Assembly (NCBI GenBank): GCA_016188545.1
Contig: JACPHO010000001.1
Coordinates: 14,249 to 78,248, forward strand
DNA: 64,000 nucleotides
Source of the DNA: Candidatus Shapirobacteria bacterium
Lineage (GTDB): Bacteria; Patescibacteriota; Microgenomatia; UBA12405
Reading direction: 5' to 3'
Positions 2,638-57,253 of this stretch are shown here, piece by piece. Under the pieces are notes generated by a model. That model made no database searches, was not told the DNA's origin, and saw nothing but the letters and a program-made list of their open reading frames with translations. The position numbers and the translations under genes were made by a program. How positions within the stretch are numbered: position 1 is the stretch's first letter; every line of letters begins with the position of its first letter.

Positions 2638-3131
2638 CTATATTTTCTTTGGTATCTCCAGTAATTCTTTTTCCCATAGTTTCTGCGTCTCGTCAAACAA
2701 ATATCCTCCTGCGACATTTTTACCATTCAGTACTAATGGCAACCAATCCCTGTCATCATCCCACATCAGATCATAGGGTATCTCGTCAAATTTAAACCAT
2801 TTTGGAGCCATTTCCTCACTCTCTACCGGCTCTCCCTCCCAGTTCGTTGCCAAAAAGACAATTACTCTTTGACTCCACTCTGGTTTGTCATCGAAGTAAA
2901 AATCAATAGCCCCCACTTTCTCTAACTCTGTAGCAGTTACCCCTACTTCCTCCATCAATTCTCTTTTAGCTGCCTCTTCAATACTTTCGCCATCATTCTT
3001 CTTTCCCCTGCTCCATTCCATTTTCCTTTGCCAAAACCCCGCTTCTTCATCGCCAAAAGTATTTCGTTATCTTTCACCAAAAATACTATCGTCGCCTGCC
3101 GGAGGTCGGGGTATCTTCTTCGATTATCCAA
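2638..3131 (-). pseudogene. NUDIX hydrolase, frameshifted (N-terminal part in a different frame)
   Basis: Frame A (2638-3021) encodes the Nudix box GESIEEAAKRELMEEVGV onward but has no in-frame start; an adjacent frame upstream encodes TIVFLVKDNEILLAMKKRGFGKGKW (typical Nudix N-terminal strands) starting from a TTG near 3129-3131; the frames meet around 3016-3018. Confidence 0.5.
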
Positions 3132-3171
3132 AAGGTTTATTACTTATTTTAGACCTCTCCAATCAATTATC

Positions 3172-3381
3172 CTATTCGCGTGGTAGGTTATCCGCTAGGG
3201 ACTGGATACTTACAATTCTGGTTAGGGGCATACTGCATATAGGACAGCTCTCATTCGGTACAATCTGTCTAATTTTCATCAACTTAACTTTTTCTGGCGA
3301 CTCGGCCTCAGTTGTGGTTGTTATTGTACCGGTGCATGCTTCAGCACCAAAATGACCTATTGTCACCATATATTTAGGCAT
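3172..3381 (-). CDS. small zinc-ribbon-like hypothetical protein
   Basis: 69 aa; CPIC plus upstream C..C/H; uncertain. Confidence 0.25.
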   Translation of the reverse strand: MPKYMVTIGHFGAEACTGTITTTTEAESPEKVKLMKIRQIVPNESCPICSMPLTRIVSIQSLADNLPRE

Positions 3382-3397
3382 AGGATCGTATTATACC

Positions 3398-4096
3398 CTA
3401 ATATCCACCGACTTTGTACTTTTGTTCACTCATCTCAAATTTATCACCCATCGCCATGTCGAGACTCTCCAACACTCCATCAAATAAATCAGCACGTTCC
3501 TCAATCTCTCTTCTAGTCATCCAAACATTTTTTCCACCCTCAAAATCGGCGACCAGCTCTCCTTTGATTTGGGTCACAGATATTACCCAAAAGTATTTGT
3601 CTTCAAGAATATTTCCTTCCTGGTCATAGTCCATTTTATGCTTAATACCAGCTATTTTAAATTCCCCATCCAAGTCTGTTTCTTCTATCAATTCTCTTCT
3701 TGCTCCTTCCAATATTGTCTCCCCCCACTTTAATTTCCCGGTTACAAATCCCCAAAATCCATAATATGGTTGCTTCAATCTTTGCTGGAGTAGATAAAGT
3801 CTTTTTGACCCGATCCGTTTTGACACCACAATTAGTACCGCCACTTTTGCTTGTTTCTCAACCTCGTTCTCTTCCGTATCAAATCTATTTGCAAACTCTT
3901 TTCCTTTTGCAGTCAAACTGTATTTTGTATCAATTTTAGTCAATAGTTTCCAGTTTGCTAATTGCCTAATATGGAAACTAAATAGGTCGGTGCTTATTTT
4001 TTTCTTATTAAGTTGACCAAAGCCAGCACTAGTTACAAATAATAATTCCCTCAATATTCCTGCCTGTATTGGGTGAACATCAAAATCTTTGATCAT
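3398..4096 (-). CDS. winged-helix DNA-binding domain fused to NUDIX hydrolase domain
   Basis: 232 aa; N-terminal HTH-like segment; C-terminal Nudix box GETILEGARRELIEETDL. Confidence 0.6.
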   Translation of the reverse strand: MIKDFDVHPIQAGILRELLFVTSAGFGQLNKKKISTDLFSFHIRQLANWKLLTKIDTKYSLTAKGKEFANRFDTEENEVEKQAKVAVLIVVSKRIGSKRLYLLQQRLKQPYYGFWGFVTGKLKWGETILEGARRELIEETDLDGEFKIAGIKHKMDYDQEGNILEDKYFWVISVTQIKGELVADFEGGKNVWMTRREIEERADLFDGVLESLDMAMGDKFEMSEQKYKVGGY

Positions 4097-4145
4097 GCCC
4101 GATTGTCACCCAATACCCTCAGTTGGTCAAGTGAAACCAGATTAA

Positions 4146-4361
4146 CTAACTATTTTCGGCGTAAATTATTGTCACCTCAGGATGTTTTTCTGGTTCTTTT
4201 AGTACTGCCAGCAGTTGCATTAACGCGTTATACACCAGCCCGGATGTTACCCTGGTCGTCGGTACCTCTGCTACCTCAGTATTGGTAGATTCCGCCACCA
4301 TTGTTGACGCCTGCCTCTTATGTGGCCAGTTTATGGATTTATCAAGTGCACATGGCTCCAT
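4146..4361 (-). CDS. hypothetical protein
   Basis: 71-aa ORF downstream of the sigma/anti-sigma pair; no motif. Confidence 0.2.
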   Translation of the reverse strand: MEPCALDKSINWPHKRQASTMVAESTNTEVAEVPTTRVTSGLVYNALMQLLAVLKEPEKHPEVTIIYAENS

Positions 4362-4378
4362 TAGCTAAGTCCCAAGAA

Positions 4379-4627
4379 TTATTTGACTGCTTCCTCCAGT
4401 TCTACTTCCCTAACTGCTGGCATTTCCGCAGTGACATATATTCCCATCATACTTCGCCCAGCATCATTTAATTGTTCGACTGGAATCTGTCTTCTTCCCC
4501 AAGTAACTATTTTTGGTTCACCTTCAATAAAAGTAAGTGCCGGTTTTTCTTGCCACAGTCTCATTTTTGTTTCTCTCCAAATTGGTGCAGGTCCGCTCAT
4601 TATTTTCTCAAAACCATGAATGTCCAA
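4379..4627 (-). CDS. hypothetical protein
   Basis: 82-aa ORF; no motif. Confidence 0.25.
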   Translation of the reverse strand: MDIHGFEKIMSGPAPIWRETKMRLWQEKPALTFIEGEPKIVTWGRRQIPVEQLNDAGRSMMGIYVTAEMPAVREVELEEAVK

Positions 4628-4938
4628 TAAGCTAGGTATCCCAAGAGTACTGCTTGAATTCCAATAGCTGCAGTGAACACATTTCCAGTGACTAGTACTA
4701 TTCGACCATATTTAAGTAGGTCATAAATAACTCGTAAAATAACGTAAAATATCATAGGGATCATAGCTGTCAAGCTGATTAAAAAAATCTGCGATTTATC
4801 TTCTTCGTCCCTGATTTTTTTAATCGTCAAGTAAGGGCGGTAGTAAAGATTGTATAAATTCCGACCCAAAAAATAGACTTGCCTAACGCAAATCAGAATC
4901 CACAACTGCCACAGTTTCTTTAGCCTTTTTACGATCAT
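4600..4938 (-). CDS. small membrane protein, putative anti-sigma factor
   Basis: 112 aa; two predicted TM helices; immediately downstream of and overlapping the ECF sigma factor gene. Confidence 0.35.
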   Translation of the reverse strand: MIVKRLKKLWQLWILICVRQVYFLGRNLYNLYYRPYLTIKKIRDEEDKSQIFLISLTAMIPMIFYVILRVIYDLLKYGRIVLVTGNVFTAAIGIQAVLLGYLAYWTFMVLRK

Positions 4939-5419
4939 ATATCCATAGCCGTTGGAATTCCTTTTTTGCTCTTATCAACTTCGACTCAACCGACTTAATA
5001 CTGGTTGCAGTCATCTGGGCAATTTTGGCAATTTTCCAACCGTCTACGTACTTTAGTCGCAGTAATTTTGAATATCCTGCCTTCATCTCCATCAGGGTAT
5101 TTTCAATTTCACTTTTCAGTTCATTTTTTAATACATCTCTTTCGGGTGACAGCGCCTTATCGGCAATTTCCTCAAATATAGGGCTAGCCGAAAACAATAC
5201 CGTTTTCAATTTCTTTTTACGGTAATGGTCGATGACTTTGTGTTTGGCAATAGAACAGATAAACGAAAATTCTGAGCATCTTCCACCAAAACTCGGCATT
5301 GACTCAATAGCGTTCATCAACACATCATTTGTCAATTCATCCACAACCCCCTCATCATCAATCTTCCGGCTGATAAATCCCCGTATCCCTTTGTAGTACT
5401 TTTGGTACAGATCCTCCAT
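4883..5419 (-). CDS. RNA polymerase sigma-70 family (ECF-type) sigma factor
   Basis: 178 aa; region 2-like (DELTNDVLMNAI..., HKVIDHYRKKK) and region 4 HTH (KIAKIAQMTATSIKSVESKLIRAKK). Confidence 0.7.
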   Translation of the reverse strand: MEDLYQKYYKGIRGFISRKIDDEGVVDELTNDVLMNAIESMPSFGGRCSEFSFICSIAKHKVIDHYRKKKLKTVLFSASPIFEEIADKALSPERDVLKNELKSEIENTLMEMKAGYSKLLRLKYVDGWKIAKIAQMTATSIKSVESKLIRAKKEFQRLWIYDRKKAKETVAVVDSDLR

Positions 5420-5457
5420 AGTATCGATACTTTACCATAATTAATCTATACTAAATT

Positions 5458-6246
5458 ATGCTCTTCCGAAGATCTCCGCATGCCCTGGAAAAACTATCCA
5501 AAGAACTAAGGCAACTCATGCTTGATACTACCTATATTGCCGGTTCAGCTCATATCGGTGGTGCCCTCTCGGTACTCGACATAATTGTTGCCCTATATAA
5601 TTCTCCTGACCTGAACTTTGAAAAAGACCATTTTATACTTTCAGCCGGTCACCTCTGCTTGGCCCACTACGCCGTCCTTTCAAAAATTCATCATATATCC
5701 GAAAAACAACTTCAAACCTTCACTCAACTGGGATCCATCTTTCAGGGCCATGAATCTACTGATGTTCCAGGCGTTGAGTTTAGCTCTGGTAGCTTAGGTC
5801 AGGGATTATCTTTTGCGGCCGGTTTAGCCTTGGGTGACAAAGATAGTCATGTCGTTTGCGTCACCTCCGATGGTGAACATAATGAAGGTCAGATCTGGGA
5901 AGCTCTTATGTTTGCCAACAAGTATCATTTAGGTAACATTATTAATGTGGTTGACTATAACGGTATTCAGATTGATGGTAAGACTGAAGACATCATGCCT
6001 CTTGGTGAACTAGCCGCCAAATATCTTCGCTTCGGTTGGACTGTGACTACGGTCGATGGTCATGATTTTACCTCCCTTCTAAAAACTATCAAGCAAGCCA
6101 AAAATTCAACAATTTATCCTGCCTGTATCATTGCCAAAACTACCTTTGGTAAGGGAATTTCTTATATGGAAAACAATTCCGAATATCATCACATAAAAAA
6201 CCTTTCAGACAAACTTTATCAACTAGGGTTGGAGGAGCTATCTTAG
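5458..6246 (+). CDS. transketolase, N-terminal (TPP-binding) subunit
   Basis: 262 aa; GGALSVLD, GHLCLAHYAVL, SDGEHNEGQIWEA motifs; split-type transketolase. Confidence 0.85.
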   Translation: MLFRRSPHALEKLSKELRQLMLDTTYIAGSAHIGGALSVLDIIVALYNSPDLNFEKDHFILSAGHLCLAHYAVLSKIHHISEKQLQTFTQLGSIFQGHESTDVPGVEFSSGSLGQGLSFAAGLALGDKDSHVVCVTSDGEHNEGQIWEALMFANKYHLGNIINVVDYNGIQIDGKTEDIMPLGELAAKYLRFGWTVTTVDGHDFTSLLKTIKQAKNSTIYPACIIAKTTFGKGISYMENNSEYHHIKNLSDKLYQLGLEELS

Positions 6247-7199: not shown

Positions 7200-8026
7200 A
7201 CACGCTAAAAGAACAATTAACGCACTACAAAAATGAACACCGTGCCATGCCCTCTTTTAATATCGATTCTTTCGAGATTTTCCAGGCCGTAGAACATGCT
7301 GTCAAAGAAACTAGTCTCCCTTGTCTAGTCCAATTATCGGCCAACGAAGACAAATTTATCGAGGCCGAAAAACTATTTCTGTTAGTCAAAAAAGCCCAGC
7401 TCGAAGGCTTACCAATCTATCTGAATATGGATCACGGTAAAGATCTTCCTCGGTTATCTAAACTAGTCCAACTGGGTTTTGATATGGTCCATTTCGATGG
7501 GTCAGCTCTTCCATATCAAGAAAATCTGTCTGCAGCAACCTCGTTTATAAAAACACTTAAATCTACTCATCCAAATATCTTGGTAGAGGTTGAGTTTAAC
7601 CACATCAATTTACTTGAGGATGGAGTTGATCCAAAAAGTTTTACCGACCCCAGTCAAGCTGTAGAGTTTATGCAGACATCTGGCGCCGACCTATTAGCCG
7701 CTTCTATCGGCAATCTTCATGGCGCTAGTACCACCCTCCCCGAGAATGTCGACTTGGACTTACTTAAAACAATCACCTCTCTTCTTCCAGATAAGTTTTT
7801 TACTCTCCACGGCGGTTCTGGTATATCTACTGAGCAAGTTGCCGCTGCCATCGATCTGGGAATAGTTAAGATAAACATCAACACCGATCTCCGACAGCAG
7901 TTCAAAAGATCGCTAAAGTCAGCTATGGATACTATCAACTCTGAAAAGCTTTACGATTATTTTTATCCGGTTATTGATGCAGTCAAGTTAGTTGCGACAA
8001 ATAAACTTATCCAGTTTTCTCAATAG
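7196..8026 (+). CDS. fba: class II fructose-bisphosphate (ketose-bisphosphate) aldolase
   Basis: 276 aa; MDHGKD, HFDGS, LHGGSGIS motifs; ATGA overlap with the upstream gene. Confidence 0.8.
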   Translation: MNTLKEQLTHYKNEHRAMPSFNIDSFEIFQAVEHAVKETSLPCLVQLSANEDKFIEAEKLFLLVKKAQLEGLPIYLNMDHGKDLPRLSKLVQLGFDMVHFDGSALPYQENLSAATSFIKTLKSTHPNILVEVEFNHINLLEDGVDPKSFTDPSQAVEFMQTSGADLLAASIGNLHGASTTLPENVDLDLLKTITSLLPDKFFTLHGGSGISTEQVAAAIDLGIVKININTDLRQQFKRSLKSAMDTINSEKLYDYFYPVIDAVKLVATNKLIQFSQ

Positions 8027-8060
8027 TTACCATATTGTCTTTGTGCATTACAATTAATCT

Positions 8061-8981
8061 ATGTACGACGTTATTAGTCTCGGTGCTGCCACAGTTGATA
8101 TCTTTGTAAAATCTGACGGCTTTTCACTCCAGGATGATAAACTGGCGATAACCTATTCTAGTAAATACGAGATGACCGACAGTTTAATCTGCTCTGGTGG
8201 TGGTGCTACCAATTCTTCTGTCTCTCTTTCTCGGCTTGGGCTCAAGACCAGTTGTGTATCTCTTCTTGGTAACGATCCTTTGAGTTTGTATGTCTTTAAC
8301 GATCTCAAAGAAAACAACGTTAGTACTGACAATCTCGTTCACCTTAACAAAGAAGATACTGATTACTCGGTTATTTTGGTCGGTCCTGATGGGGGAAGAA
8401 CAATAGTTACTAATCGTGGTGTCAGTCGGCTTGAAAATGAAAACCTAAATTGGGATAAAATATCTCAGACCAGCTGGTTTTACATCACTTCACTTGAAGG
8501 AAACCTTGATCTACTAGAACAAATAATCGGCTTTGCCACCGAGCATCAAATCCGGGTTGCTCTCAACCCCGGCAATCGCGAATTGATGGATAGTAAACGT
8601 CTCATTCCATTGTTGTCTCACGTGGATTTTCTTTTACTAAATGGGATTGAGTCAGAGACTTTGACTGGTGTCCATGTCAACGAAGGCAACTACTGGGAAA
8701 CTTTACTTAGCTACGGTGCCAAAATTTCAGCTGTGACCAATGGTCGTCAGGGAGCCTACGTACTTACTTCCGAAGAGAAGCTATATTCACCAATTATTAA
8801 CACAACTCCAGTCGACGAAACTGGGGCAGGAGATTCTTTTGGTTCAGCTTTCGTTGGTGGTATTATCAACCGACTTTCTCCGGCAGATTCACTCTTTTGG
8901 GCTATTAAAAATTCTGCCTCAGTGGTTTCCGGTCTGGGAGCCAAAACGGGACTGTTAACTCTAGCTGAAATCAAGCAATAA
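8061..8981 (+). CDS. PfkB-family carbohydrate kinase (ribokinase-like)
   Basis: 306 aa; C-terminal PfkB signature DETGAGDSFGSAFVGG. Confidence 0.75.
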   Translation: MYDVISLGAATVDIFVKSDGFSLQDDKLAITYSSKYEMTDSLICSGGGATNSSVSLSRLGLKTSCVSLLGNDPLSLYVFNDLKENNVSTDNLVHLNKEDTDYSVILVGPDGGRTIVTNRGVSRLENENLNWDKISQTSWFYITSLEGNLDLLEQIIGFATEHQIRVALNPGNRELMDSKRLIPLLSHVDFLLLNGIESETLTGVHVNEGNYWETLLSYGAKISAVTNGRQGAYVLTSEEKLYSPIINTTPVDETGAGDSFGSAFVGGIINRLSPADSLFWAIKNSASVVSGLGAKTGLLTLAEIKQ

Positions 8982-9003
8982 CCGATAAATATAAAAAATA
9001 AAT

Positions 9004-9648
9004 ATGCTAACGAAACTTGAGATGAGCAAAAAGAAGTCATACTCTTCAGACGTGCCGCCCGAAGAGGTGAGTGACTTATCTGAAATAAAACTCAAAAAAA
9101 AGCGCTTTTTTATAATACTTTCTATTGTCCTAACTATAGGACTAAGTCTGGTTTTTATCATTTATCGACAGGTGAAAGAGATAGTTGTCAACCCCAAGCT
9201 TTCTATCCCTCGTTTACCTCAGCTATCTCTTTCAAAACCAGTTGTCACTAGCGCCGATATTGAAGACCTGACCGCCGCCATTTCCCAAATTATTACCATC
9301 GATCAATCAAATTGGAACATCGTCGTTGCCAATAGTACTGCCGTGTACAATTGGCCTAGCAATCGTAACCATTTTGATCTGTCACAGGTAACTGCTATTT
9401 CCAATAAATTTTCCCGACTCCTCCCATCAACCCTACTTGCTGAGCTACTTCCCCAGGGACTTTTAGTTCGGGAAGAGTCTAGTAGTAATCAGGATCAACA
9501 AAAAATCACCGCTGTCATTTATCCACCAACATCTACTCCCATTTTTTTTGATCTCCAATATGAAGGAACAGCTGAAGAATTTCAAAAAATAATCACTGAA
9601 CTTATCCCTACTATTTACTGGAGTACGATTAGCCAATCAACCCCTTAA
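9004..9648 (+). CDS. hypothetical membrane-anchored protein
   Basis: 214 aa; single N-terminal TM (FFIILSIVLTIGLSLVFIIY). Confidence 0.4.
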   Translation: MLTKLEMSKKKSYSSDVPPEEVSDLSEIKLKKKRFFIILSIVLTIGLSLVFIIYRQVKEIVVNPKLSIPRLPQLSLSKPVVTSADIEDLTAAISQIITIDQSNWNIVVANSTAVYNWPSNRNHFDLSQVTAISNKFSRLLPSTLLAELLPQGLLVREESSSNQDQQKITAVIYPPTSTPIFFDLQYEGTAEEFQKIITELIPTIYWSTISQSTP

Positions 9649-34811: not shown

Positions 34812-35675
34812 CTAGTCACGTTCTTCAATCAGTCTTTCAACTGCCTCCGCTGTTTCTTCTGGTTTTTCCACTGTCAACACATGTCCTGCCTCATCAACTT
34901 CCTCAATATGATATTTACCCCTACCATCCAGTAGTTTTCTTGCTTGAGTCGCATTAGTTAGCTTATCGAATTTTCCGAAAATTAGATCAATTGGGATAGT
35001 ATTATTTTCAATTAAGTCATCGATGTGAGTCTTTGAAATCGCCATCCCCATATCCACATAAACTTCCTTCGACGCCTTTAACTTCCCCTCAAAACCTGTC
35101 TCATCGATTATTTTCTTATCAAACTTATACATATTTATATGTTTGGCAGTGAAATAGGTATAGCGTTTTGTATCGACAATCCGCTTAACCGCGCTCATAG
35201 CTAATTTGCTTTTGCGAAGCAGCCGATACATCACTCCCATAACTTTCACCATCGCTGTTTTATTGTTTTTTAAAAACATTGGGGCAATCAGAATTATGTG
35301 ACTAGCTACTTTTGGATGGCGGCTATAAAAAGTCGATACTACATAAGCCCCCATCGAATGACCCACAACTACCGGTTTTTTTATCTTCATACTTTTGATA
35401 AAACCAGCCAGATAATCCGCTTGGTTCCTAAGATTATAAGAATCTAGTCGGTCGCTATCTCCAAAACCGGGAAGATCTACCCCGATAAATTGATACTCTT
35501 TATATAGATACCGTGCCATTGGGATAAACCCCTTCCAATTATTTGTCCATCCGTGCACAAACACGAGAGGACGACCTTTTCCCGAAGTAGCATAGTGTAT
35601 AACAGTATCTCCAACTTTTACCTCTGCTTCCTTAAATATTGCTACTTTGGCACCTTTTGTGATATCTTTAGACAT
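34812..35675 (-). CDS. alpha/beta-fold hydrolase
   Basis: 287 aa; HGW...; nucleophile elbow GHSMG. Confidence 0.7.
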   Translation of the reverse strand: MSKDITKGAKVAIFKEAEVKVGDTVIHYATSGKGRPLVFVHGWTNNWKGFIPMARYLYKEYQFIGVDLPGFGDSDRLDSYNLRNQADYLAGFIKSMKIKKPVVVGHSMGAYVVSTFYSRHPKVASHIILIAPMFLKNNKTAMVKVMGVMYRLLRKSKLAMSAVKRIVDTKRYTYFTAKHINMYKFDKKIIDETGFEGKLKASKEVYVDMGMAISKTHIDDLIENNTIPIDLIFGKFDKLTNATQARKLLDGRGKYHIEEVDEAGHVLTVEKPEETAEAVERLIEERD

Positions 35676-36923: not shown

Positions 36924-38501
36924 TGTACTAAGAGTTTGATCGTGGCTCAGGGTAAACGCTGGCGATGTGCCTAAGACATGCAAGTCGAACGGGATTTGTA
37001 GTCTACACGAAGACATTGATAACTTCTTAACTTTTTTTAAGTCTTTCCACTTTTGGAATATTTTTTTGAACTTTGATAAGAATCGATTATTGTAATCATT
37101 TCGATGTTTTCGTGTAGATTATAGATTCAGTGGCGAACGGGTGAGTAATGAGTACGAACGTACTCTCAAGCGGAACATAGCCCACCGAAAGGTGGGGTAA
37201 TTTTCCATAGTCTCGAAAGAGTAAAGACGCAAGTCACTTGAGAAGCGGCGTACTTGCCACCAGCTAGTTGGTAGGGTAACGGCCTACCAAGGCTATAACG
37301 GCTAACGGCTCTTAGCGGAGAGTCCGTCACAATGGGACTGAGACACGGCCCATACTTCTACGGAAGGCAGCAGTTAGGAATCTTGCACAATGGACGAAAG
37401 TCTGATGCAGCGACATCGCGTGAAGGATGAAGGCTCTCGGGTCGTAAACTTCTTTTATTTTGCCATGAAGGCATTTTGAATCAGCAACTACTAACTACGT
37501 GCCAGCAGTCGCGGTAATACGTAGGTTGCAAGCGTTACCCGGTTTTATTGGGCGTAAAGCGTCTGTAGGTGGTTTTATAAGTCTTATTTCAAAGACTCCG
37601 GCTCAACCGGAGATAGGGGTAGGATACTGTAAGACTAGAGTGATATCGGGGTTACTGGAATTTTTAGTGTAGGGGTAAAATCCGTGGATACTAAAAAGAA
37701 CACCAAGCGCGAAGGCGGGTAACTAGGTATTTACTGACACTCAGAGACGAAAGCTAGGGTAGCCAATCAGATTAGAGACCTGAGTAGTCCTAGCCGTAAA
37801 CTATGTATGTTAATTCTCTGCAATTTATTGTGGGGGATGTAAGCTAACGCGTTAAACATACCGCCTGGGGAGTATAGCCGCAAGGCCGAAACTCAAACGA
37901 ATTGGCGGGGAGGCGCACAACCAGTGGAGCATGTGGTTCAATTCGATACAAAGCGATGAACCTTACCTGGGTTTGACATTTATCTGCAAACCCCCAGAAA
38001 CGGGGGAATCCTTAGAGGGTGATAAACAGCTGTTGCATGGCTGTCGTCAGCTCGTGACGTGAGTTGTTCTCTTAAGTGAGGTAACGAGCGCAACCCCCAT
38101 CCGGTGTTATTGTGTCACCGGAGACTGCCTAGCATTATTTTGTTAGGAGGAAGGAGGGGACGACGTCAAGTCAGCATGATGCTTATGTCCAGGGCTACAC
38201 ACATCCTACAATGGGGAGGACAATGGGTCGCGAAACCGCGAGGTGGAGCCAATCCCACAAACCTTTCCTCAGTTGGGATTGCAGGCTGAAACTCGCCTGC
38301 ATGAACCCGGAATTGGTAGTAATCGCGCATCAGCAGCGCGCGGTGAATACGTTCTCGCCTCTTGCACACACTGCCCGTCAAATCAACAAAGTTGGGGGTA
38401 CCCGAAGCTTGGCCTTTGGCCGAATCAAGGTAAATCCAGCGATGAGGGTTAAGTCGTAACAAGGTATCTGTACTGGAAGGTGCAGATGGATCACCTCCTT
38501 T
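36924..38501 (+). rRNA. rrs: 16S ribosomal RNA, divergent (CPR-like), with ~100-nt AT-rich expansion in helix 6/V1 (~36995-37118)
   Basis: AGAGTTTGATCGTGGCTCAG at the 5' end; GTGCCAGCAGTCGCGGTAATAC (515 site with C>T); ATTAGAGACCTGAGTAGTCC; CTGCCCGTCA; AAGTCGTAACAAGGTA; GGATCACCTCCTT at the 3' end. Confidence 0.9.
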
Positions 38502-44953: not shown

Positions 44954-45298
44954 ATGAAGATTTCTCGTTTTGAAGAAATTTTAGTCTGGCAAAAAACCAA
45001 GCCATTTATTGTCGAAATCTACAAATCATTTTTAAATGTCGGCGACTATTCATTCAGAGACCAGGTACTTCGTGCCAGTGTTTCAATTATGAATAATATT
45101 GCCGAAGGTTTTGAAAGAGGCTCCAATCCTGACTTCAAAAAGTTTCTTTACATTTCCAAAGGATCAGCCGGTGAGGTCCGCTCCATGCTCTATCTTGCAC
45201 TGGACTTATCATATATTACCCAAGAAAAATCCGCTAAACTTATACAAGAGACAGAAGAGATCTCAAAAATGTTATCTGGCTTAATTAAAGTACTTTAA
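44954..45298 (+). CDS. four-helix-bundle protein (23S rRNA intervening-sequence protein family)
   Basis: 114 aa; ...SIMNNIAEGFERGS...FLYISKGSAGEV... typical of PF05635/TIGR02436. Confidence 0.65.
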   Translation: MKISRFEEILVWQKTKPFIVEIYKSFLNVGDYSFRDQVLRASVSIMNNIAEGFERGSNPDFKKFLYISKGSAGEVRSMLYLALDLSYITQEKSAKLIQETEEISKMLSGLIKVL

Positions 45299-47263: not shown

Positions 47264-47668
47264 ATGAAATTCTTCAATCGAGACTCCTTAGACTACGAAT
47301 TCAAAGACACTTTCGTTGCCGGTCTCGTCCTTACTGGTTCAGATGCCAAATCACTGCGCACTCAAGGTGTCCAATTCAACGGATCAAAAATAGAGATAAT
47401 TAACGGCATACCCACTGTCTTTAACCTTACTATTGAACCCTATAAGTTTGCCCAGTCACAGGAAGTCGATAAAACCAAGGAGCGTAAAATACTCCTTTCA
47501 AGTAAAGAAATAGCCAAGCTCCAAAGTCTTCGTAATCAAAAATATATGATCATCCCTGTCAGTATTTTTCTCAAACACAACTGGTTCAAGATGGAAATCG
47601 GCGTCGGCCGCAAGCTCCGCAAGTTTGAAAAAAGGGACAAACTCAAGAAAAAAGAACAAATGATATAA
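47264..47668 (+). CDS. smpB: SsrA-binding protein SmpB
   Basis: 134 aa; AGLVLTG.D.KSLR, ERKILL..KEI.KL, NWFKMEIGVGRKLRKFEKRD match SmpB throughout. Confidence 0.8.
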   Translation: MKFFNRDSLDYEFKDTFVAGLVLTGSDAKSLRTQGVQFNGSKIEIINGIPTVFNLTIEPYKFAQSQEVDKTKERKILLSSKEIAKLQSLRNQKYMIIPVSIFLKHNWFKMEIGVGRKLRKFEKRDKLKKKEQMI

Positions 47669-48199: not shown

Positions 48200-48700
48200 A
48201 AAAATATAAAGGAGGACTTTGTCACTCCGAAGCTCCCCAAAGGGGAGCGAAGGAGGAGATGCCAGGTATTGAGCCCGGGTCCGAAAGTGGACAATAAAAA
48301 ACTTCTACAAGCTTAATTAATTTTACTTGCCAGTCCGTAGCTCAAAGAGCGAAGGATGGTCCGTCAGTCAATGGAAATTAACAAACCATTGTTGACTGTC
48401 GATTATTGAGGGCATTACCCCTCGCTTGTTACCTACCAAAATCGAGATTGATAGACCAGCATTCTTGTTTAATTTACACCGACTAACCTCCTCAAGAATA
48501 GGGGATTAACCGATGGTCAGCTCAATTATGCTTGCGCGTAGTTGAGATCAGCTTTTGAAGTACCCAAACCGAAGCCTGAGAAATCTAGAGCTAAATTGAC
48601 ACCGAAGTTTTTAGCTTTGGCATGTTTTTGTTTGACCCTGTTTTATCCGTTTTACAACAGATCCGGCTCGGCCGGACGACTCAATGGATCAAAGTCGGCT
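48200..48700. ncRNA. candidate structured RNA in a 617-nt ORF-free gap (tmRNA or RNase P RNA-like; strand and ends unresolved)
   Basis: GC-rich hairpins (ctcccc-aaa-ggggag; gagggcattacccctc); plus strand: ACAGATCCGGCT resembles RNase P CR-IV and can pair with GAGCC[C]GGGTC 385 nt upstream (P4-like), GCCAGGTA shared with M1 RNA; minus strand: GGGGTAATGCCCTCAATAATCGACAG resembles a tmRNA 5' end; adjacent to smpB. Confidence 0.2.
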
Positions 48701-48773
48701 TGCGGTTTTTTAAGGTACTCACTCCGTCGATGCAATACATCTCCGAGTCTAGAACAGGAAAATTATACCATAT

Positions 48774-49334
48774 CTATCGTAGCTTTTCAATAATCTGCTT
48801 CCAACTTTCAAAAACTTTGATATTACTTAAGTCTCCCTTGCCTGCCCGCCTTTGGAGGGTCAAGGGAGATTTAGAGGGATTGAAATACCACACGCTCATT
48901 TTTGGATAGTTTTTAGCTAGCTCTACTACAGTCGGCCAGTTATCATCAATATGAATATCCGACCCTACCTTTCCCACGTTTTGCACTTTACTCTTCACCC
49001 CCCCAATCTCTCTATCATCAAAAAAGTACCCATCATACAAGTCAAAGTAACCCCACCTCTTCATCCATTCATAAGTAATCGCCCTAACATAACCTTTTCT
49101 ACTGGTTACCAACATCACCTCAAAACCCATCGCCTTTAGTTTTTTCAATCCCGCCTGGCTACCCTCAATTGGCCTTCTCCACCGCTGGTTAACCTGTCTC
49201 CACCACAAGTCGATAAGTTTTAATATTTTTGGCATTTGACCACTCTCGACTTTCTTCTGTTGTGTCCAATCTCTTCCCCACAGCTTTTCAATAATCACAC
49301 CATCAAAATCAACCGACACAATTCTTTGTTTCAT
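48774..49334 (-). CDS. HAD-superfamily hydrolase (5'-nucleotidase-like)
   Basis: 186 aa; N-terminal DFDGVI motif. Confidence 0.5.
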   Translation of the reverse strand: MKQRIVSVDFDGVIIEKLWGRDWTQQKKVESGQMPKILKLIDLWWRQVNQRWRRPIEGSQAGLKKLKAMGFEVMLVTSRKGYVRAITYEWMKRWGYFDLYDGYFFDDREIGGVKSKVQNVGKVGSDIHIDDNWPTVVELAKNYPKMSVWYFNPSKSPLTLQRRAGKGDLSNIKVFESWKQIIEKLR

Positions 49335-49353: not shown

Positions 49354-49833
49354 ATGAAAAGGACATTTCTGGTTCAGATGATGGAGAAATATTACGAATA
49401 TTTCCATCTTAGGTTTGGCTTATTAAGTTTACTCATCACCCTCCTAGTTTTTCCTCAATCAAATTTTCTAGTTATGTTGTTTTTGGCTGTCTTGGCCAGC
49501 TTTTTACCCGATTTTGATCATGTTCTAGCTATATTCATCTATGCTCGTTCGACCTCATACTCCACCTCAATTCGCCATCATCTCAGCCACTTTGATTTTC
49601 CCTCTGCAATCGAATACATCCGTAAACATCAAAAATTCAACCACTTTATTCTATCCCACAATTTACTCACTCCATTTGCATTTTTTCTGCTATATATATT
49701 TTGTCAAACAGTCTTCCCCAAAACTATCCATTTTTTGTCTCTCTTTTGCCCTCCATTTTGTCTTCGATCTTCTCGAAGATCTTTTGGCCCTTGGCCGTCT
49801 CAATCCCAATTGGTTTCTTCGGTTCAGGCGTGA
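49354..49833 (+). CDS. hypothetical membrane protein
   Basis: 159 aa; several hydrophobic helices. Confidence 0.3.
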   Translation: MKRTFLVQMMEKYYEYFHLRFGLLSLLITLLVFPQSNFLVMLFLAVLASFLPDFDHVLAIFIYARSTSYSTSIRHHLSHFDFPSAIEYIRKHQKFNHFILSHNLLTPFAFFLLYIFCQTVFPKTIHFLSLFCPPFCLRSSRRSFGPWPSQSQLVSSVQA

Positions 49834-50547
49834 CTAAATACCATCCCTCTGTCTTAGGAGAAACTCTCTGATTCCCACTTTGTTGCCGCTAACCGTTATT
49901 ACCCCGATCTCCTTCGAATCAACTGCCGCGGCCACTCGTTCTGCCAACTGGTCCACATTAACTGGGTCAAATTGCCAACCTGGATAAATTAAGTAGGGTA
50001 TGAAGGGCAATCTTTTTAGCCAGGTGTGCATTAACTTCACCTCTGGTGACCCTTCGCCAACAATTAGCTTTGGCCTAAGTATCAATAGATTTGGCACTTC
50101 TTTTATTAATATTTCTTCGGCTCGTCTCTTGGATCTGGCAAAACTATCAACCCGATAATTTACTGCGTTCGAACTCACAAAAATCATTTTGTTTGCACCT
50201 GCGTTATTAAATATTTTTGCCATGTTTTTCGCCATTATCACATTGTCATTATATGTTCCATGAATTCGCCTCTTGTTCAATGAAGTTATCCCAGCCATAT
50301 GTATGATCACATCAAACCTGTCATTTGAATATCTCCCGACCGTCACTTTCGATAATAGATTATTTGATTTTCTGTCAATTATCACCCACTGATACTTCTT
50401 CTTTGTTAGTAGTTCGCACACCCGCTTACCCAAAAATCCACCTGCACCAGTCACCAAAACTTTCATTTTTGTTTTATAGACAGCACTTGTCTTAAATACA
50501 GGCCAAATGCCCACCAGCCAAATATCGTCCCTAATACTAGTATCCAT
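49834..50547 (-). CDS. NAD-dependent epimerase/dehydratase family protein
   Basis: 237 aa; VLVTGAGGFLGKRV Rossmann motif. Confidence 0.6.
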   Translation of the reverse strand: MDTSIRDDIWLVGIWPVFKTSAVYKTKMKVLVTGAGGFLGKRVCELLTKKKYQWVIIDRKSNNLLSKVTVGRYSNDRFDVIIHMAGITSLNKRRIHGTYNDNVIMAKNMAKIFNNAGANKMIFVSSNAVNYRVDSFARSKRRAEEILIKEVPNLLILRPKLIVGEGSPEVKLMHTWLKRLPFIPYLIYPGWQFDPVNVDQLAERVAAAVDSKEIGVITVSGNKVGIREFLLRQRDGI

Positions 50548-51029
50548 TTAATCGATTCGTGGATTATTGTCCCGTAACTACCCATGTTTGGATAACTTAG
50601 CAATATGGCCATCAGAATTACCGACAAATTTTCAGTAATAAATTTGAGTTTACCCAATATATGGGCCTTCAAGAAAACTAACTTTATTGCCGCCAATTGT
50701 CTTACTCCCGCTACCAGAAAATCTCTGATCAAATTAGCAATCAATAATATCAATATGATTACACTGGGATAAAAGTATAGATAACAAATCAACATAGTCG
50801 TTACAATCGCCCTATCAACCGACAAGTCAAAAAACTGACCTACTTCTGAAGCTTGATTAAACGTTCTAGCCACCCATCCATCAAGTTTGTCCATAAAAAA
50901 TACCAGAATATATGTCGGTAAAATATATGGTCTCAACCAAGTAATATTTCCCAACAATACAACCAAAATTAAGACATATAGCAAAAACCTTATTAGGGTA
51001 ATCCAATTTGGAATGGTGTTTATCTTCAT
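50463..51029 (-). CDS. CDP-alcohol phosphatidyltransferase
   Basis: 188 aa; DKLDGWVARTFNQASEVGQFFDLSVDR (D-G-x2-A-R...G-x3-D-x3-D). Confidence 0.7.
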   Translation of the reverse strand: MKINTIPNWITLIRFLLYVLILVVLLGNITWLRPYILPTYILVFFMDKLDGWVARTFNQASEVGQFFDLSVDRAIVTTMLICYLYFYPSVIILILLIANLIRDFLVAGVRQLAAIKLVFLKAHILGKLKFITENLSVILMAILLSYPNMGSYGTIIHESIKWILVLGTIFGWWAFGLYLRQVLSIKQK

Positions 51030-51031
51030 GC

Positions 51032-51547
51032 TCAGATTATAGTGTTATTCAGTCTCAAAAGATATCCCAGTACCTTAAATAGCAAATGTAGAGCCATGCC
51101 GGCCAATAATAGCACTGCCATTTCTTTTAGGCTTAAAAGCCTCCAAATAGTTGATATTGGAATCACCCCAACTATCCAATCAATCTGATCCCATGGGAAC
51201 CAGGATACTCCCGATGCCACCCCGGCTCGTCGCTTGAAAAAACTCTTAATCGCATCCCCCCCCAACCCTCCCAGTCCCATTGCTGCTCCAAAATACCAAG
51301 GTAGGGGATAGTTGGCTTCACGAATCACCACTCCTTTTAGAATTAAAAAAATTATTTCGGCAGCCAATATTCCAGTTACAAACCCTCTTATTGTCTTGTG
51401 ATCACCAAAAATTCGCTTTCCGTCCCACGATTTCCCCATATCAATTGGTATGTTCCACTTCGGCCAAATTTTTACCGCCATTGGCGGTACCATGTTGGCG
51501 ATACCAGCCGGTAGCATTATCCAAAAAAGTTTCACCCAATCAATCAT
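51032..51547 (-). CDS. CDP-archaeol synthase-like CTP transferase (CarS/DUF46 family)
   Basis: 171 aa; 5 TM; WDGKRIFGDHKTIRGF and GGDAIKSFFKRR resemble CarS motifs. Confidence 0.5.
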   Translation of the reverse strand: MIDWVKLFWIMLPAGIANMVPPMAVKIWPKWNIPIDMGKSWDGKRIFGDHKTIRGFVTGILAAEIIFLILKGVVIREANYPLPWYFGAAMGLGGLGGDAIKSFFKRRAGVASGVSWFPWDQIDWIVGVIPISTIWRLLSLKEMAVLLLAGMALHLLFKVLGYLLRLNNTII

Positions 51548-52960: not shown

Positions 52961-53623
52961 TCAGTGAATTATACCAGTAAACCCCTCAACTAACTCCATA
53001 AGTTCCTTCTCTGGATCGGCAGACAATACAAAGTCACTGGCTGATACTACCCCTACCGCACCCATCTTTAAACAAATCTCCACATCAGATTTACTTTTAA
53101 TCCCAGCTCCAGCAACGATTTTTGTTCCCGGTGCTTTTTCAACTACATGCATTATCATTTTTGGTTCTTCCGTAGCTATGGACTTGTCCTTACTGGCAAT
53201 CAGGCTTGGTGGTTCAAACATAATGTAATCAGCTCCAGCCTGCGCCCCCCACTTTTCAATCTGACCAAGACTCCCTATACATAGGCAGATTTCAAAATCA
53301 TCTGGTTTTCCCTTAATAATTTTCAAAATTGTCCCCTTTGGCTTACCGTGTTCAGAGTGATTTAGTAAACTTCCTTTTATCCCCAAAGCCCTGGCTTGAT
53401 CCATTGAGGTCCACCCAGTTGCTCTTCCACCGCTGTATTCATCAACATTTTGCAGCCACACTTCCACTCCTGTTTCTTTGGAAATCCGTGCCGCGTCAAG
53501 AGCCGAAGCTACTACGATCATTCGTATACCAGTTTTATCAGCTACCTTTTTGACAATTTTAGCCAACTCTATCGCCTTATTACCATAAGTCTCTTTGTAT
53601 GTTTTGAAGTTTAATAAGATCAT
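52961..53623 (-). CDS. tpiA: triosephosphate isomerase, short archaeal-type
   Basis: 220 aa; LNHSEHG, CIGSLGQ, FEPPSLIASKD. Confidence 0.65.
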   Translation of the reverse strand: MILLNFKTYKETYGNKAIELAKIVKKVADKTGIRMIVVASALDAARISKETGVEVWLQNVDEYSGGRATGWTSMDQARALGIKGSLLNHSEHGKPKGTILKIIKGKPDDFEICLCIGSLGQIEKWGAQAGADYIMFEPPSLIASKDKSIATEEPKMIMHVVEKAPGTKIVAGAGIKSKSDVEICLKMGAVGVVSASDFVLSADPEKELMELVEGFTGIIH

Positions 53624-56018: not shown

Positions 56019-56083
56019 TATATTTTGCAAACTACATATTTATTAGGTAACATATTACCAAGTGTTAAGAAGATGCTAATCCA

Positions 56084-57253
56084 TTGGCAACCGAGCTCAG
56101 CCACGGTGCCCTCAATAACACGCCTTTAATAATTAACAAAGGAAAAATGAATTATCCTCAGTTCTCTTCCGAATCTGTCTGTGAAGGTCATCCCGATAAA
56201 GTTTGCGATCAAATCGCCGATGCCATTCTCGATGCCGCTTATACCATTGACCCCAAAGCTCGTGTAGCCTCTGAGGTTTTGGCAACAGCCAATAAATTAG
56301 TTCTGGCTGGTGAAATCACTGTAAACGGTGAACTAGACTTCGAAGCCATTGCTCGCAAAAAGATTGCAGAGTTAGATTATCTAGATCCTGTTCTGCAGTT
56401 CACTGACAAATCAGACATTGAGGTATTTATCCACAAACAATCACCAGACATCGCTCAAGGTGTCGATGCTGGTGGTGCAGGTGATCAGGGAATGATGTTT
56501 GGTTATGCCTGCAAAGAGACTCCTGAACTAATGCCCCTGCCTATTTCTATGTCTCACAGTCTGGCTAGAAAAATGGATGAATTGCAACGTATTCACCGCT
56601 GGTTACGTCCCGACGGTAAGTCACAAGTAACTGTCAGGTACGATGGTCAAACACCTTCCGTTATCGAACAAGTAGTGCTTGCCAAACCAATAAATTATGC
56701 AGCTGCTCCCCAAGATTATGCGCATTTCTTTTATGAGAATGTAGTTGTACCGGTCTTATCGGAATACGGATTTTCCGTTACCGAAGGTAAAATGATCCTA
56801 AACGGCACTGGTAAGTGGGAAATCGGTGGACCATTCTCAGACACTGGCGTAACCAATCGAAAAATTGTCGTCGACACTTTTGGAGGTATGGGAAGAATCG
56901 GTGGGGGTGGATTATCCGGTAAAGATACCACCAAAGTTGATCGCAGTGGGGTTTACGCTGCCCGTTATTTAGCCAAAAATGTAGTCGCTGCTGGTCTTGC
57001 TGATCGCTGCGAAGTCCAGTTAGCTTATGCCATCGGACAAGTCCAACCTGTCGGTAAAGCCATCGAAACATTTGGTACTGCCCGTTCCGAACAAAAAGTA
57101 ATTGAAGATTTCGCCTGGCAACTCCTCGACCTTTCTGTTGCTGGTATCAATGAAGGACTTTCTCTCCGTGTACCTATTTACCAAAAAACTGCTCGTTATG
57201 GACACTTTGGCAACAAAGATTATCCTTGGGAAAAGATTATCGCATCTCAATAA
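56084..57253 (+). CDS. metK: S-adenosylmethionine synthetase
   Basis: 389 aa; GHPDKVCDQIADAILDA, GAGDQG, GGGGLSGKD. Confidence 0.9.
   Translation: MATELSHGALNNTPLIINKGKMNYPQFSSESVCEGHPDKVCDQIADAILDAAYTIDPKARVASEVLATANKLVLAGEITVNGELDFEAIARKKIAELDYLDPVLQFTDKSDIEVFIHKQSPDIAQGVDAGGAGDQGMMFGYACKETPELMPLPISMSHSLARKMDELQRIHRWLRPDGKSQVTVRYDGQTPSVIEQVVLAKPINYAAAPQDYAHFFYENVVVPVLSEYGFSVTEGKMILNGTGKWEIGGPFSDTGVTNRKIVVDTFGGMGRIGGGGLSGKDTTKVDRSGVYAARYLAKNVVAAGLADRCEVQLAYAIGQVQPVGKAIETFGTARSEQKVIEDFAWQLLDLSVAGINEGLSLRVPIYQKTARYGHFGNKDYPWEKIIASQ

Follow-up and report, generated by a model that had tools for sequence, protein, structure and literature searches.

A CarS-family protein coupled to a PgsA-like phosphatidyltransferase in a Candidatus Shapirobacteria genome: a candidate head-group branch of phospholipid synthesis

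Among the closest described counterparts of the genes considered here are CDP-archaeol synthase, CarS (EC 2.7.7.67; PF01864/DUF46), with a solved structure from A. pernix (5GUF) and characterised in A. fulgidus, and the Kennedy pathway, in which CdsA (EC 2.7.7.41; PF01148) is accompanied by PgsA and PgpA. Bacteria of the candidate phyla radiation (CPR) have incomplete lipid pathways, yet their membranes are fatty-acid based and rich in lysolipids (PMC7242380; PMC11665869; PMC7143001), and reviews describe their lipid synthesis as missing and the means of lipid uptake as unknown (PMC11665869; PMC7242380). A salvage route from phosphatidate (PA) through CDP-diacylglycerol (CDP-DAG) to phosphatidylglycerophosphate (PGP) or phosphatidylinositol (PI) has been proposed for a Saccharibacterium (PMC6031116), and Panguiarchaeum, a lipid-auxotrophic archaeon, keeps CarS, PgsA and PssA (PMC12411855). 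Here we describe a 64,000-nt stretch of DNA (hereafter the window, taken at its full length) from a metagenome-assembled genome (MAG) of Candidatus Shapirobacteria, a CPR lineage; it carries bacterial 16S rRNA and tmRNA genes, and in it a gene for a CarS-like protein lies directly upstream of one for a CDP-alcohol phosphatidyltransferase (CAPT). We lean towards the reading that this module provides the head-group steps of phospholipid synthesis to a bacterium unable to make lipid cores, in which the CarS-type enzyme would replace CdsA as CDP-diacylglycerol synthase and feed phosphatidylglycerol synthesis from salvaged lipid.

The CarS-like protein and its coupled partners

Three closely packed open reading frames (ORFs) occupy the minus strand between 49834 and 51547. 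The first of them (51032..51547, minus strand) encodes the CarS-like protein of 171 amino acids, a predicted CTP:lipid-phosphate cytidylyltransferase with five transmembrane (TM) helices, which a reading of the DNA made from its letters alone (the sequence-only reading) had already placed near CarS and apart from CdsA. The motifs then quoted, WDGKRIFGDHKTIRGF and GGDAIKSFFKRR, occur verbatim in the protein, the length of the ORF is confirmed and an AlphaFold model (pLDDT 89.6) supports the five helices. Against PF01864 the protein scores 74.4 bits (cutoff 22; E 1.4e-20), with residues 6-168 aligned to profile positions 7-172 of 175, whereas its match to the CdsA profile PF01148 reaches 23.3 bits, under the cutoff of 24, and is confined to residues 50-110. 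Its best NCBIfam match is the CDP-2,3-bis-(O-geranylgeranyl)-sn-glycerol synthase equivalog NF003114, at 111.5 bits short of the cutoff of 148. In PDB searches the single sequence recovers A. pernix CarS (5GUF) at E 5e-14 as the sole convincing match, a profile of the 19-member family recovers it at E 8.6e-25, and no CdsA structure in the PDB was matched by this profile even at E <= 10; in a Foldseek comparison of the model with the PDB, 5GUF was again the sole match (E 1e-5, TM-scores 0.69/0.74, 31% identity). Since the Pfam, NCBIfam and PDB sequence and fold matches all point to CarS, the family assignment is confirmed: by sequence the protein is a member of PF01864, and neither a CdsA nor a member of an unrelated family.

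The CdsA signature, S-x-[LIVMF]-K-R-x4-K-D-...-H-G-G-x-x-D-R-x-D, is absent from the protein. The cytoplasmic-loop motifs A-N, P-x-D, G-x-x-K-T-x-x-G, G-D-x3-S-F-x-K-R and D-Q-x-D are invariant in 19 relatives and are also common to 21 canonical archaeal CarS, and the core residues N18, P34, D36, G48, K51, T52, G55, G97, D98, K105, R106, D120, Q121 and H154 are kept. CTP-transferase chemistry is plausible for a protein of this sequence and modelled fold. An identical entry in NCBI (MBI2464589.1) is already named "CDP-archaeol synthase", a name assigned at the level of the domain.

The TGA stop of the CarS-like gene is followed, after 2 nt, by the ATG of the CAPT gene (50463..51029, minus strand; 188 amino acids), and the two genes are translationally coupled. 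The head-to-tail phosphatidyltransferase announced by the sequence-only reading is borne out by PF01066 (77.9 bits, E 1.4e-21) and by an exact catalytic signature D-x2-DG-x2-AR-x8-G-x3-D-x3-D (DKLDGWVARTFNQASEVGQFFDLSVD). Of the solved structures, S. aureus PgsA (7DRJ, E 2e-7) is the closest, and we propose that the CAPT is a phosphatidylglycerophosphate synthase which would use the CDP-lipid made by the product of the upstream gene. The CAPT stop in turn overlaps the start of the third gene in the sequence ATGA. Our operon call follows from this gene spacing; scans for consensus promoters and terminators gave numbers at chance (7 against 9.4 expected and 4 against 2.5) and were not used.

The third gene (49834..50466, minus strand; 210 amino acids) encodes a short protein of the short-chain dehydrogenase/reductase (SDR) superfamily, equivalent to the Rossmann half of the extended-SDR/epimerase family. 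At full length the ORF spans 49834-50547, and an independent gene caller starts it at MKVLVTGAGG, which gives the 210-residue form. The match to PF01370 (E 3.6e-14) is limited to residues 30-129 of the long ORF, in the N-terminal half, and the Rossmann motif G-x-x-G-x-x-G appears as GAGGFLG at the N-terminus. Relatives range from 191 to 299 amino acids; the window copy is without the C-terminal substrate-binding domain, with 210 residues against 274-299 in the longer relatives, and the short forms (191-210 amino acids) are a lineage feature. Residue 109, the catalytic Tyr of Y-x3-K, is Phe in the window copy only (FARSK), while six relatives (loci L004, L005, L008, L009, L086 and L087) keep the Tyr in the form YA[RNVKL][SAN]K. 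The NAD-dependent epimerase, the weakest part of the sequence-only reading, stands as a family match, but what is encoded is a Rossmann half with Phe for the catalytic Tyr, a lineage-limited accessory gene whose product is probably catalytically impaired in this genome.

Two further genes lie downstream. A membrane protein resembling YdjM, a putative membrane metal-dependent hydrolase, is encoded convergently with the SDR gene (49354..49833, plus strand); its PF04307 score of 21.7 bits is below the cutoff of 29. Homologues stand beside CarS in four loci (L002, L004, L009 and L012, by a seed-only HMM) and one is fused to it in L059, and the protein is a possible accessory member of the module. 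Next comes a phosphatase of the haloacid dehalogenase (HAD) superfamily (48774..49334, minus strand), which matches Acid_phosphat_B with 27.7 bits, gives weak HAD-IIIA matches and has invariant DxDG, TSRK, K and DDN motifs. We infer from context that it may dephosphorylate the CAPT product, as an analogue of a PGP phosphatase. On the other side, 1.4 kb from the module, lies a gene for an archaeal-type triosephosphate isomerase (52961-53623, minus strand), which scores 168 bits with NCBIfam NF003302/PRK04302 (cutoff 132) against 82 bits with the bacterial tim model and keeps the same position in L002.

Among relatives, the window CAPT is most similar to the PgpA-adjacent CAPTs of L008 and L009 (32% identity, E 2e-17). 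With the CAPT (3118-3666) of L086 it shares no more than ~24% identity, while the CarS proteins of these two loci are 82% identical, and the gene order differs, with CarS-CAPT-SDR in the window and CarS-SDR-CAPT-HAD in L086. Because of these unequal identities we take the CAPTs to have been exchanged while CarS stayed, and the pattern suggests a recent replacement of the CAPT together with rearrangement within Shapirobacteria. The exchange between close relatives, the rearranged order and the loss of the SDR catalytic Tyr could also be signs of a decaying module, in the course of being lost and non-functional in this genome. However, none of CarS, CAPT and HAD is truncated or has lost a catalytic motif, CarS retains 72-82% identity to its relatives in other samples and the tight translational coupling is kept, and we consider such decay very improbable.

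A clade apart from canonical CarS and its gene neighborhoods

The affinities of the CarS-like protein were analyzed in neighbor-joining (NJ) trees of ~180 columns with 200 bootstraps, built from two sequence sets that were each gathered by similarity to a different query; the canonical archaeal set was collected with the A. pernix CarS (ApCarS) sequence rebuilt from the 5GUF alignment, and its members bear the equivalog name in NCBI. The 21 canonical CarS, from the TACK group and methanogens, are split from 81 sequences of the CPR/DPANN type in 184/200 bootstraps. In a second NJ tree an added group of methanogen CarS joins the canonical clade in 195-199/200 replicates, and the CPR-type and fusion proteins do so in <=6/200. 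It is therefore well supported by the sequences that the window protein belongs to a clade apart from canonical archaeal CarS, and the phylogeny that the sequence-only reading had called for places it outside the archaeal group.

This clade has signature residues, which in the window protein are H50, R54, K101 and W116-F-P-W119. Position 50 is H or N in the CPR-type clade against Gly in 100% of archaeal CarS, position 54 is R against mostly Glu, and position 101 is K against Gly; directly before DQxD the clade has [W/F]-x-P-[F/W/Y] where archaeal CarS have A-P-L-L. Many members of the clade also show an insertion of 10-14 amino acids between TM2 and TM3. Together these features furnish a recognition pattern, G-x-[H/N]-K-T-x-R-G, K101 and [W/F]-x-P-[F/W/Y]-D-Q, for what may be termed a "type-2" CarS.

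To characterize the genomic context we picked 80 loci by similarity to the query and clustered, without prior assumptions, the neighbors up to four genes away from the CarS-like gene on either side; the neighbor clusters were checked with Pfam and counted with HMMs (seed-only HMMs and domain coordinates for YdjM and PHP), a gene being counted if it lies <=3 kb from the CarS-like gene. A CAPT is found in 62 of the 80 loci and some phosphatase-type gene in 46, most often a PHP phosphoesterase (38 loci, or 39 if it may lie anywhere in the locus), which in most cases is directly upstream of the CarS-like gene. Less frequent neighbors are a DAGK_cat/YegS lipid kinase (9/80), PIG-L and HAD (6/80 each), inositol-1-phosphate synthase and YdjM-like proteins (5/80 each), SDR (4/80), PgpA (3/80), and a PlsC-type acyltransferase and phosphatidylserine decarboxylase (Psd; 2/80 each).

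Several of these associations take the form of ordered operons. In three Collierbacteria-like loci (L004, L008 and L009) the order is CarS-like, CAPT, PgpA (101-106 bits) and SDR, and in L086 the CarS-like gene is followed by the short SDR, the CAPT and the HAD gene with a 4-bp overlap at each junction. The archaeal locus L055 has a DAGK-like gene, a DUF212 (divergent PAP2) gene, Psd, CAPT and the CarS-like gene; L059, labelled as Woesearchaeota, encodes Psd, two tandem-CAPT proteins, a PlsC-type acyltransferase and a YdjM::CarS fusion; and L002 lacks the SDR and has its CAPT in inverted orientation. In Saccharibacteria loci (e.g. L031 at 8540-9271 and L054 at 1017-2186) genes for the PIG-L de-N-acetylase and myo-inositol-1-phosphate synthase stand beside a CAPT-PHP-CarS module, a possible sign that these lineages have (glyco)lipids built on phosphatidylinositol.

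Domain fusions extend this picture, and all the fusion proteins fall in the clade of the window protein and display the CPR-type signature residues. YdjM::CarS fusions form five clusters (P0241-P0245), the fusion of L059 (7476-8519) combining YdjM (47.1 bits) and a CarS-like domain (121.8 bits) in a single protein of 347 amino acids. A PAP2 lipid phosphatase is fused to the CarS-like domain in at least ten clusters (P0248, P0249, P0256-P0261, P0264 and P0276), four of them verified with Pfam, and DUF212 in two (P0429 and P0443). Apparent PHP::CarS fusions proved to be abutting genes and were rejected. In P0286 (L088, 2354-3679) a CarS domain (residues 4-190) and a PlsC-type acyltransferase (256-383) share one protein, and the operon runs from an acyltransferase through Psd and CAPT to this fusion, on a bacterial contig with SLH-domain and histidine-kinase genes; by its gene content this operon is a complete acyl-phospholipid route, with a predicted CarS-type enzyme at the CdsA step. 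Finally, P0333 is a CAPT::CarS fusion, which implies a CDP-alcohol product used by a phosphatidyltransferase.

These associations bear on the nature of the lipid that is activated. The CTP-transferase superfamily also includes dolichol and phytol kinases, and the sequence-only reading had raised polyprenyl intermediates, so that the protein might instead be a CTP-dependent polyprenol kinase or a CDP-polyprenol-forming enzyme that recycles carrier lipids for cell-wall or glycan synthesis rather than serving membrane phospholipids. The window does encode MraY and two class A penicillin-binding proteins, and therefore a polyprenyl-phosphate carrier is needed, and the weak similarity of the protein to the PF01148 superfamily core would fit. 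However, the recurrent partners are CAPTs, Psd, PgpA, acyltransferases and DAG-kinase-like kinases and not glycosyltransferases or UppP/UppS, the CAPT::CarS fusion implies a CDP-alcohol product, and the protein has the full cytidylyltransferase motif set in common with ApCarS. We regard a role in carrier-lipid recycling as quite improbable.

The same evidence can be set against a true CDP-archaeol synthase, through which the bacterium would make or remodel archaeal-type isoprenoid ether lipids. That CarS is the best Pfam, NCBIfam and PDB match, the name given to MBI2464589.1 in NCBI, the archaeal-type triosephosphate isomerase 1.4 kb away and the GGGPS and DGGGPS homologs reported from one Parcubacteria genome (PMC7852524) all speak for this, but the protein falls short of the equivalog cutoff, groups apart from the canonical clade and has replaced residues that are fixed in archaeal CarS (G50->H, G101->K, A-P-L-L->W-F-P-W). 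Furthermore, no GGGPS, UbiA/DGGGPS or G1PDH gene was found in the 64-kb window or among the recurrent neighbors in the 80 loci, the partners are PgsA-like, PgpA, PlsC-like and DgkB-like, and the lipids attributed to CPR are fatty-acid based (PMC7242380). A CDP-archaeol synthase is therefore improbable here, and the "archaeal-style" label that the sequence-only reading gave to the module is not upheld.

Relatives of the protein are present in at least 593 species-representative genomes, the majority from Patescibacteria (Shapiro-, Woese-, Collier-, Levy- and Kerfeldbacteria and many Saccharibacteria), with others in DPANN archaea and a few Gammaproteobacteria. Among 1.84 billion cluster representatives, 1,487 clusters match the protein at E <= 1e-3; at E <= 1e-10 the number is 627. 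The archaeal origin of some members is shown by protein markers on their contigs, namely thermosome and aIF2 (L074), PCNA (L055), Orc1 (L052) and GatE (L056); these markers served because a tRNA scan of the archaeal-labelled loci found none. Some labels are less secure: the "Nanoarchaeia" label of L014 is doubtful because the contig encodes GroEL (a bona fide GroEL with a GroES-like ORF, 3655-5846), and several labels of ENA "binchicken" MAGs look unreliable, since the "Gammaproteobacteria"/"Pseudomonadales" contigs L008, L009 and L061 (<1.1 Mb) carry CPR-like operons. Two loci of free-living Gammaproteobacteria, L013 of Pseudohongiella (7602-8531, on a 4.79-Mb chromosome) and L035 of Permianibacter, carry a CarS-like gene of the CPR type in surroundings devoid of lipid genes. 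We discarded them as a clue to function, their neighbors being uninformative: an ABC ATPase and, in L013, a fusion of Pyr_redox_2 with an AIR-synthase-related, SelD-like domain. The long N-terminal extensions may be ORF-calling artefacts in GC-rich DNA.

This distribution raises a third alternative, in which the clade would be a chain-promiscuous salvage enzyme that activates whatever diradylglycerol phosphate the host supplies, acyl-ester in CPR and isoprenoid-ether in DPANN, and would have moved between both groups of episymbionts. It overlaps with the salvage reading that we favor and makes a stronger claim on specificity and evolution. The clade unites CPR bacteria with verified archaeal contigs under a common set of signature residues, its archaeal members emerge at more than one point from among the bacterial ones in the NJ tree, and an operon logic of DAGK-like kinase, PAP2-like phosphatase, Psd, CAPT and CarS recurs in the archaeal L055 and in bacterial loci; moreover, the M. 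thermoautotrophicus CarS is indifferent to ether or ester bonds and to stereochemistry (PMC4244643), and CDP-archaeol can be made by E. coli CdsA (PMC7852524). Against it, some MAG labels are unreliable (the GroEL-bearing L014 and small "Gammaproteobacteria" chromosomes of <1 Mb), the direction of transfer is beyond the reach of an NJ tree, and a PlsC-type acyltransferase beside the gene in the Woesearchaeota-labelled L059 points to acyl lipids there too and not to promiscuity. On balance we think this stronger version unlikely. More tentatively than the salvage reading itself, we entertain the broader proposal that the "type-2" clade might have taken over the synthesis of CDP-lipid from CdsA in much of Patescibacteria and be common to DPANN, as a shared head-group-activation enzyme of lipid-scavenging episymbionts in both domains that would act on host-derived acyl or ether lipids and have been exchanged across the bacterial-archaeal boundary.

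Proposed head-group synthesis on salvaged lipid

In the scenario that we favor, head-group synthesis on salvaged lipid, the lipid core would be supplied by the host, and the CarS-family enzyme would, with CTP, convert a phosphatidate-type lipid, obtained by scavenging diacylglycerol, lysolipid or phosphatidate, into CDP-diacylglycerol, thereby taking the step done by CdsA in ordinary bacteria. The coupled PgsA-like CAPT would then move the phosphatidyl group to glycerol phosphate to form phosphatidylglycerophosphate, and a nearby phosphatase would free phosphatidylglycerol, this being the HAD protein here and PgpA, PHP, PAP2/DUF212 or a metallophosphoesterase in other lineages. The short SDR and the YdjM-like membrane protein would be lineage-specific accessories. 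Elsewhere in the window an alpha/beta-hydrolase (34812-35675, minus strand), with Hydrolase_4 and LIDHydrolase matches in Pfam that resemble lipases and lysophospholipases, is a candidate for the processing of host lipids.

The context of the CarS-like gene is that of a bacterial phosphatidylglycerol and acyl-lipid pathway, with PgpA operons, PgsA-like CAPTs, kinases and acyltransferase fusions. In particular, the CarS-CAPT-PgpA operon and the CarS::PlsC-type and CAPT::CarS fusions support the supply of CDP-diacylglycerol to transferases of the PgsA/PssA type by the predicted CarS-like enzyme. A search with E. coli CdsA as query and with the CdsA signature, covering the 64-kb window and ~1.1 Mb of related loci, found no canonical CdsA, and the weak matches of the query fell on the CarS-like ORFs themselves. 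The lipid substrate is more readily pictured as acyl than as isoprenoid, glycerol phosphate as the likely head-group acceptor and the genome as presumably lacking cdsA.

Several points weigh against this proposal. Characterised CarS enzymes favor the geranylgeranyl-bearing DGGGP over phosphatidate, and AfCarS failed to complement an E. coli cdsA mutant (PMC9385802; PMC4244643). Given this preference, activity on acyl lipids would need an altered specificity, with which the clade-specific residues are compatible, although they are not proof of it. The clade also occurs in genuine DPANN archaea, where an ether lipid is the more likely substrate, and it may be without one uniform function because the 4.8-Mb Pseudohongiella chromosome offers no lipid context. 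As to the partners, the best NCBIfam subfamily of the CAPT, pgsA (TIGR00560), is matched with 73.5 bits, under its cutoff of 109.1, and the HAD protein, tried as a PGP phosphatase of the PgpP/PgpC/Gep4 type, gave no specific family match. The scan for cdsA covers 64 kb of the 563,806-bp source contig and is weak evidence for absence; the trees are NJ only, of ~180 columns, and their two sets were collected by different queries; and the lipid activity predicted for the clade is drawn from sequence and context.

If the proposal is correct, CPR bacteria would need from their host only diacylglycerol, lysolipid or phosphatidate and would have their own control of head-group composition. The split between CarS and CdsA would then be no clean marker of archaea and bacteria, a point of weight in the debate on the lipid divide, and the automatic name "CDP-archaeol synthase", borne by hundreds of bacterial genomes, would be misleading and in need of correction. 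Should the "type-2" proposal also hold, it would represent a natural case of a single enzyme lineage working on both sides of the lipid divide. The module thus does bear, as the sequence-only reading had put it, on how a reduced, lipid-auxotrophic genome builds its membranes.

Other features of the window are in keeping with its source or stand apart from the module. GC skew is negative in nearly every 2-kb bin whatever the gene strand, the cumulative skew dropping steadily to -5.5 over positions 1-64000, and this matches the one-strand C-over-G asymmetry known for Microgenomates genomes (PMC7143001). The 16S rRNA gene (36924-38501, plus strand) is solitary, no 23S or 5S rRNA gene and just two tRNA genes being found in the window, and 6.5 kb downstream of it lies a gene (44954-45298, plus strand) for a small "23S rRNA intervening sequence protein" (PF05635). 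The tmRNA match (48251-48744, minus strand) extends over 494 nt against a model of 374 positions, probably owing to an insertion, and SmpB is encoded close by (47264-47668, plus strand). A SAM-I/IV riboswitch (56057-56158, plus strand; 45.3 bits) lies directly 5' of the S-adenosylmethionine synthetase gene (56084-57253), an ordinary arrangement.

Comparison with described systems

Both the database name of the gene and the concept of head-group salvage were already known, and what is added here is a CarS-family enzyme that probably acts like CdsA. In the literature searched we found no publication that links CarS/DUF46 with CPR bacteria, describes this clade or analyzes bacterial CarS homologs. 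With CarS the window protein shares the family, the five-TM fold, a length of ~170 amino acids and the loop motifs, and its similarity to 5GUF is evident in both sequence and structure; it differs in scoring under the equivalog cutoff and in forming part of a clade of its own. This clade resides in CPR and a few other bacteria and in DPANN archaea, not in lipid-autotrophic archaea, and its partners are PgsA-like, PgpA, PlsC-like and DAG-kinase-like genes and not GGGPS, DGGGPS and GGR.

With the CdsA-PgsA-PgpA series of the Kennedy pathway the module shares, by context, its pathway position, immediately ahead of a PgsA-like CAPT and a phosphatase of the PGP type, and relatives hold the literal order of CarS-like, PgsA-like and PgpA genes. 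CdsA belongs to the same superfamily, and the chemistry, in which CTP and a lipid phosphate give a CDP-lipid and pyrophosphate, is probably the same. Yet the window protein has 171 amino acids and five TM helices where E. coli CdsA has 285 amino acids, its PF01148 match extends over ~60 residues below the cutoff, and it is without the CdsA signature.

The nearest parallels in lifestyle come from two other organisms. Panguiarchaeum, with CarS, PgsA, PssA and Cls but without isoprenoid synthesis, has likewise kept head-group genes without lipid-core synthesis, although this is an archaeal case, with a CarS that groups with those of Asgard archaea (PMC12411855). For the Saccharibacterium T. rhizospherense a similar logic of salvage from PA to CDP-DAG has been proposed, in a paper that names the enzyme phosphatidate cytidylyltransferase and makes no mention of a CarS-type family (PMC6031116). 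Where CDP-activation and head-group transfer are kept without synthesis of the lipid core, they point to the remodelling of acquired lipid, and it is with such systems that the Shapirobacteria module would belong.

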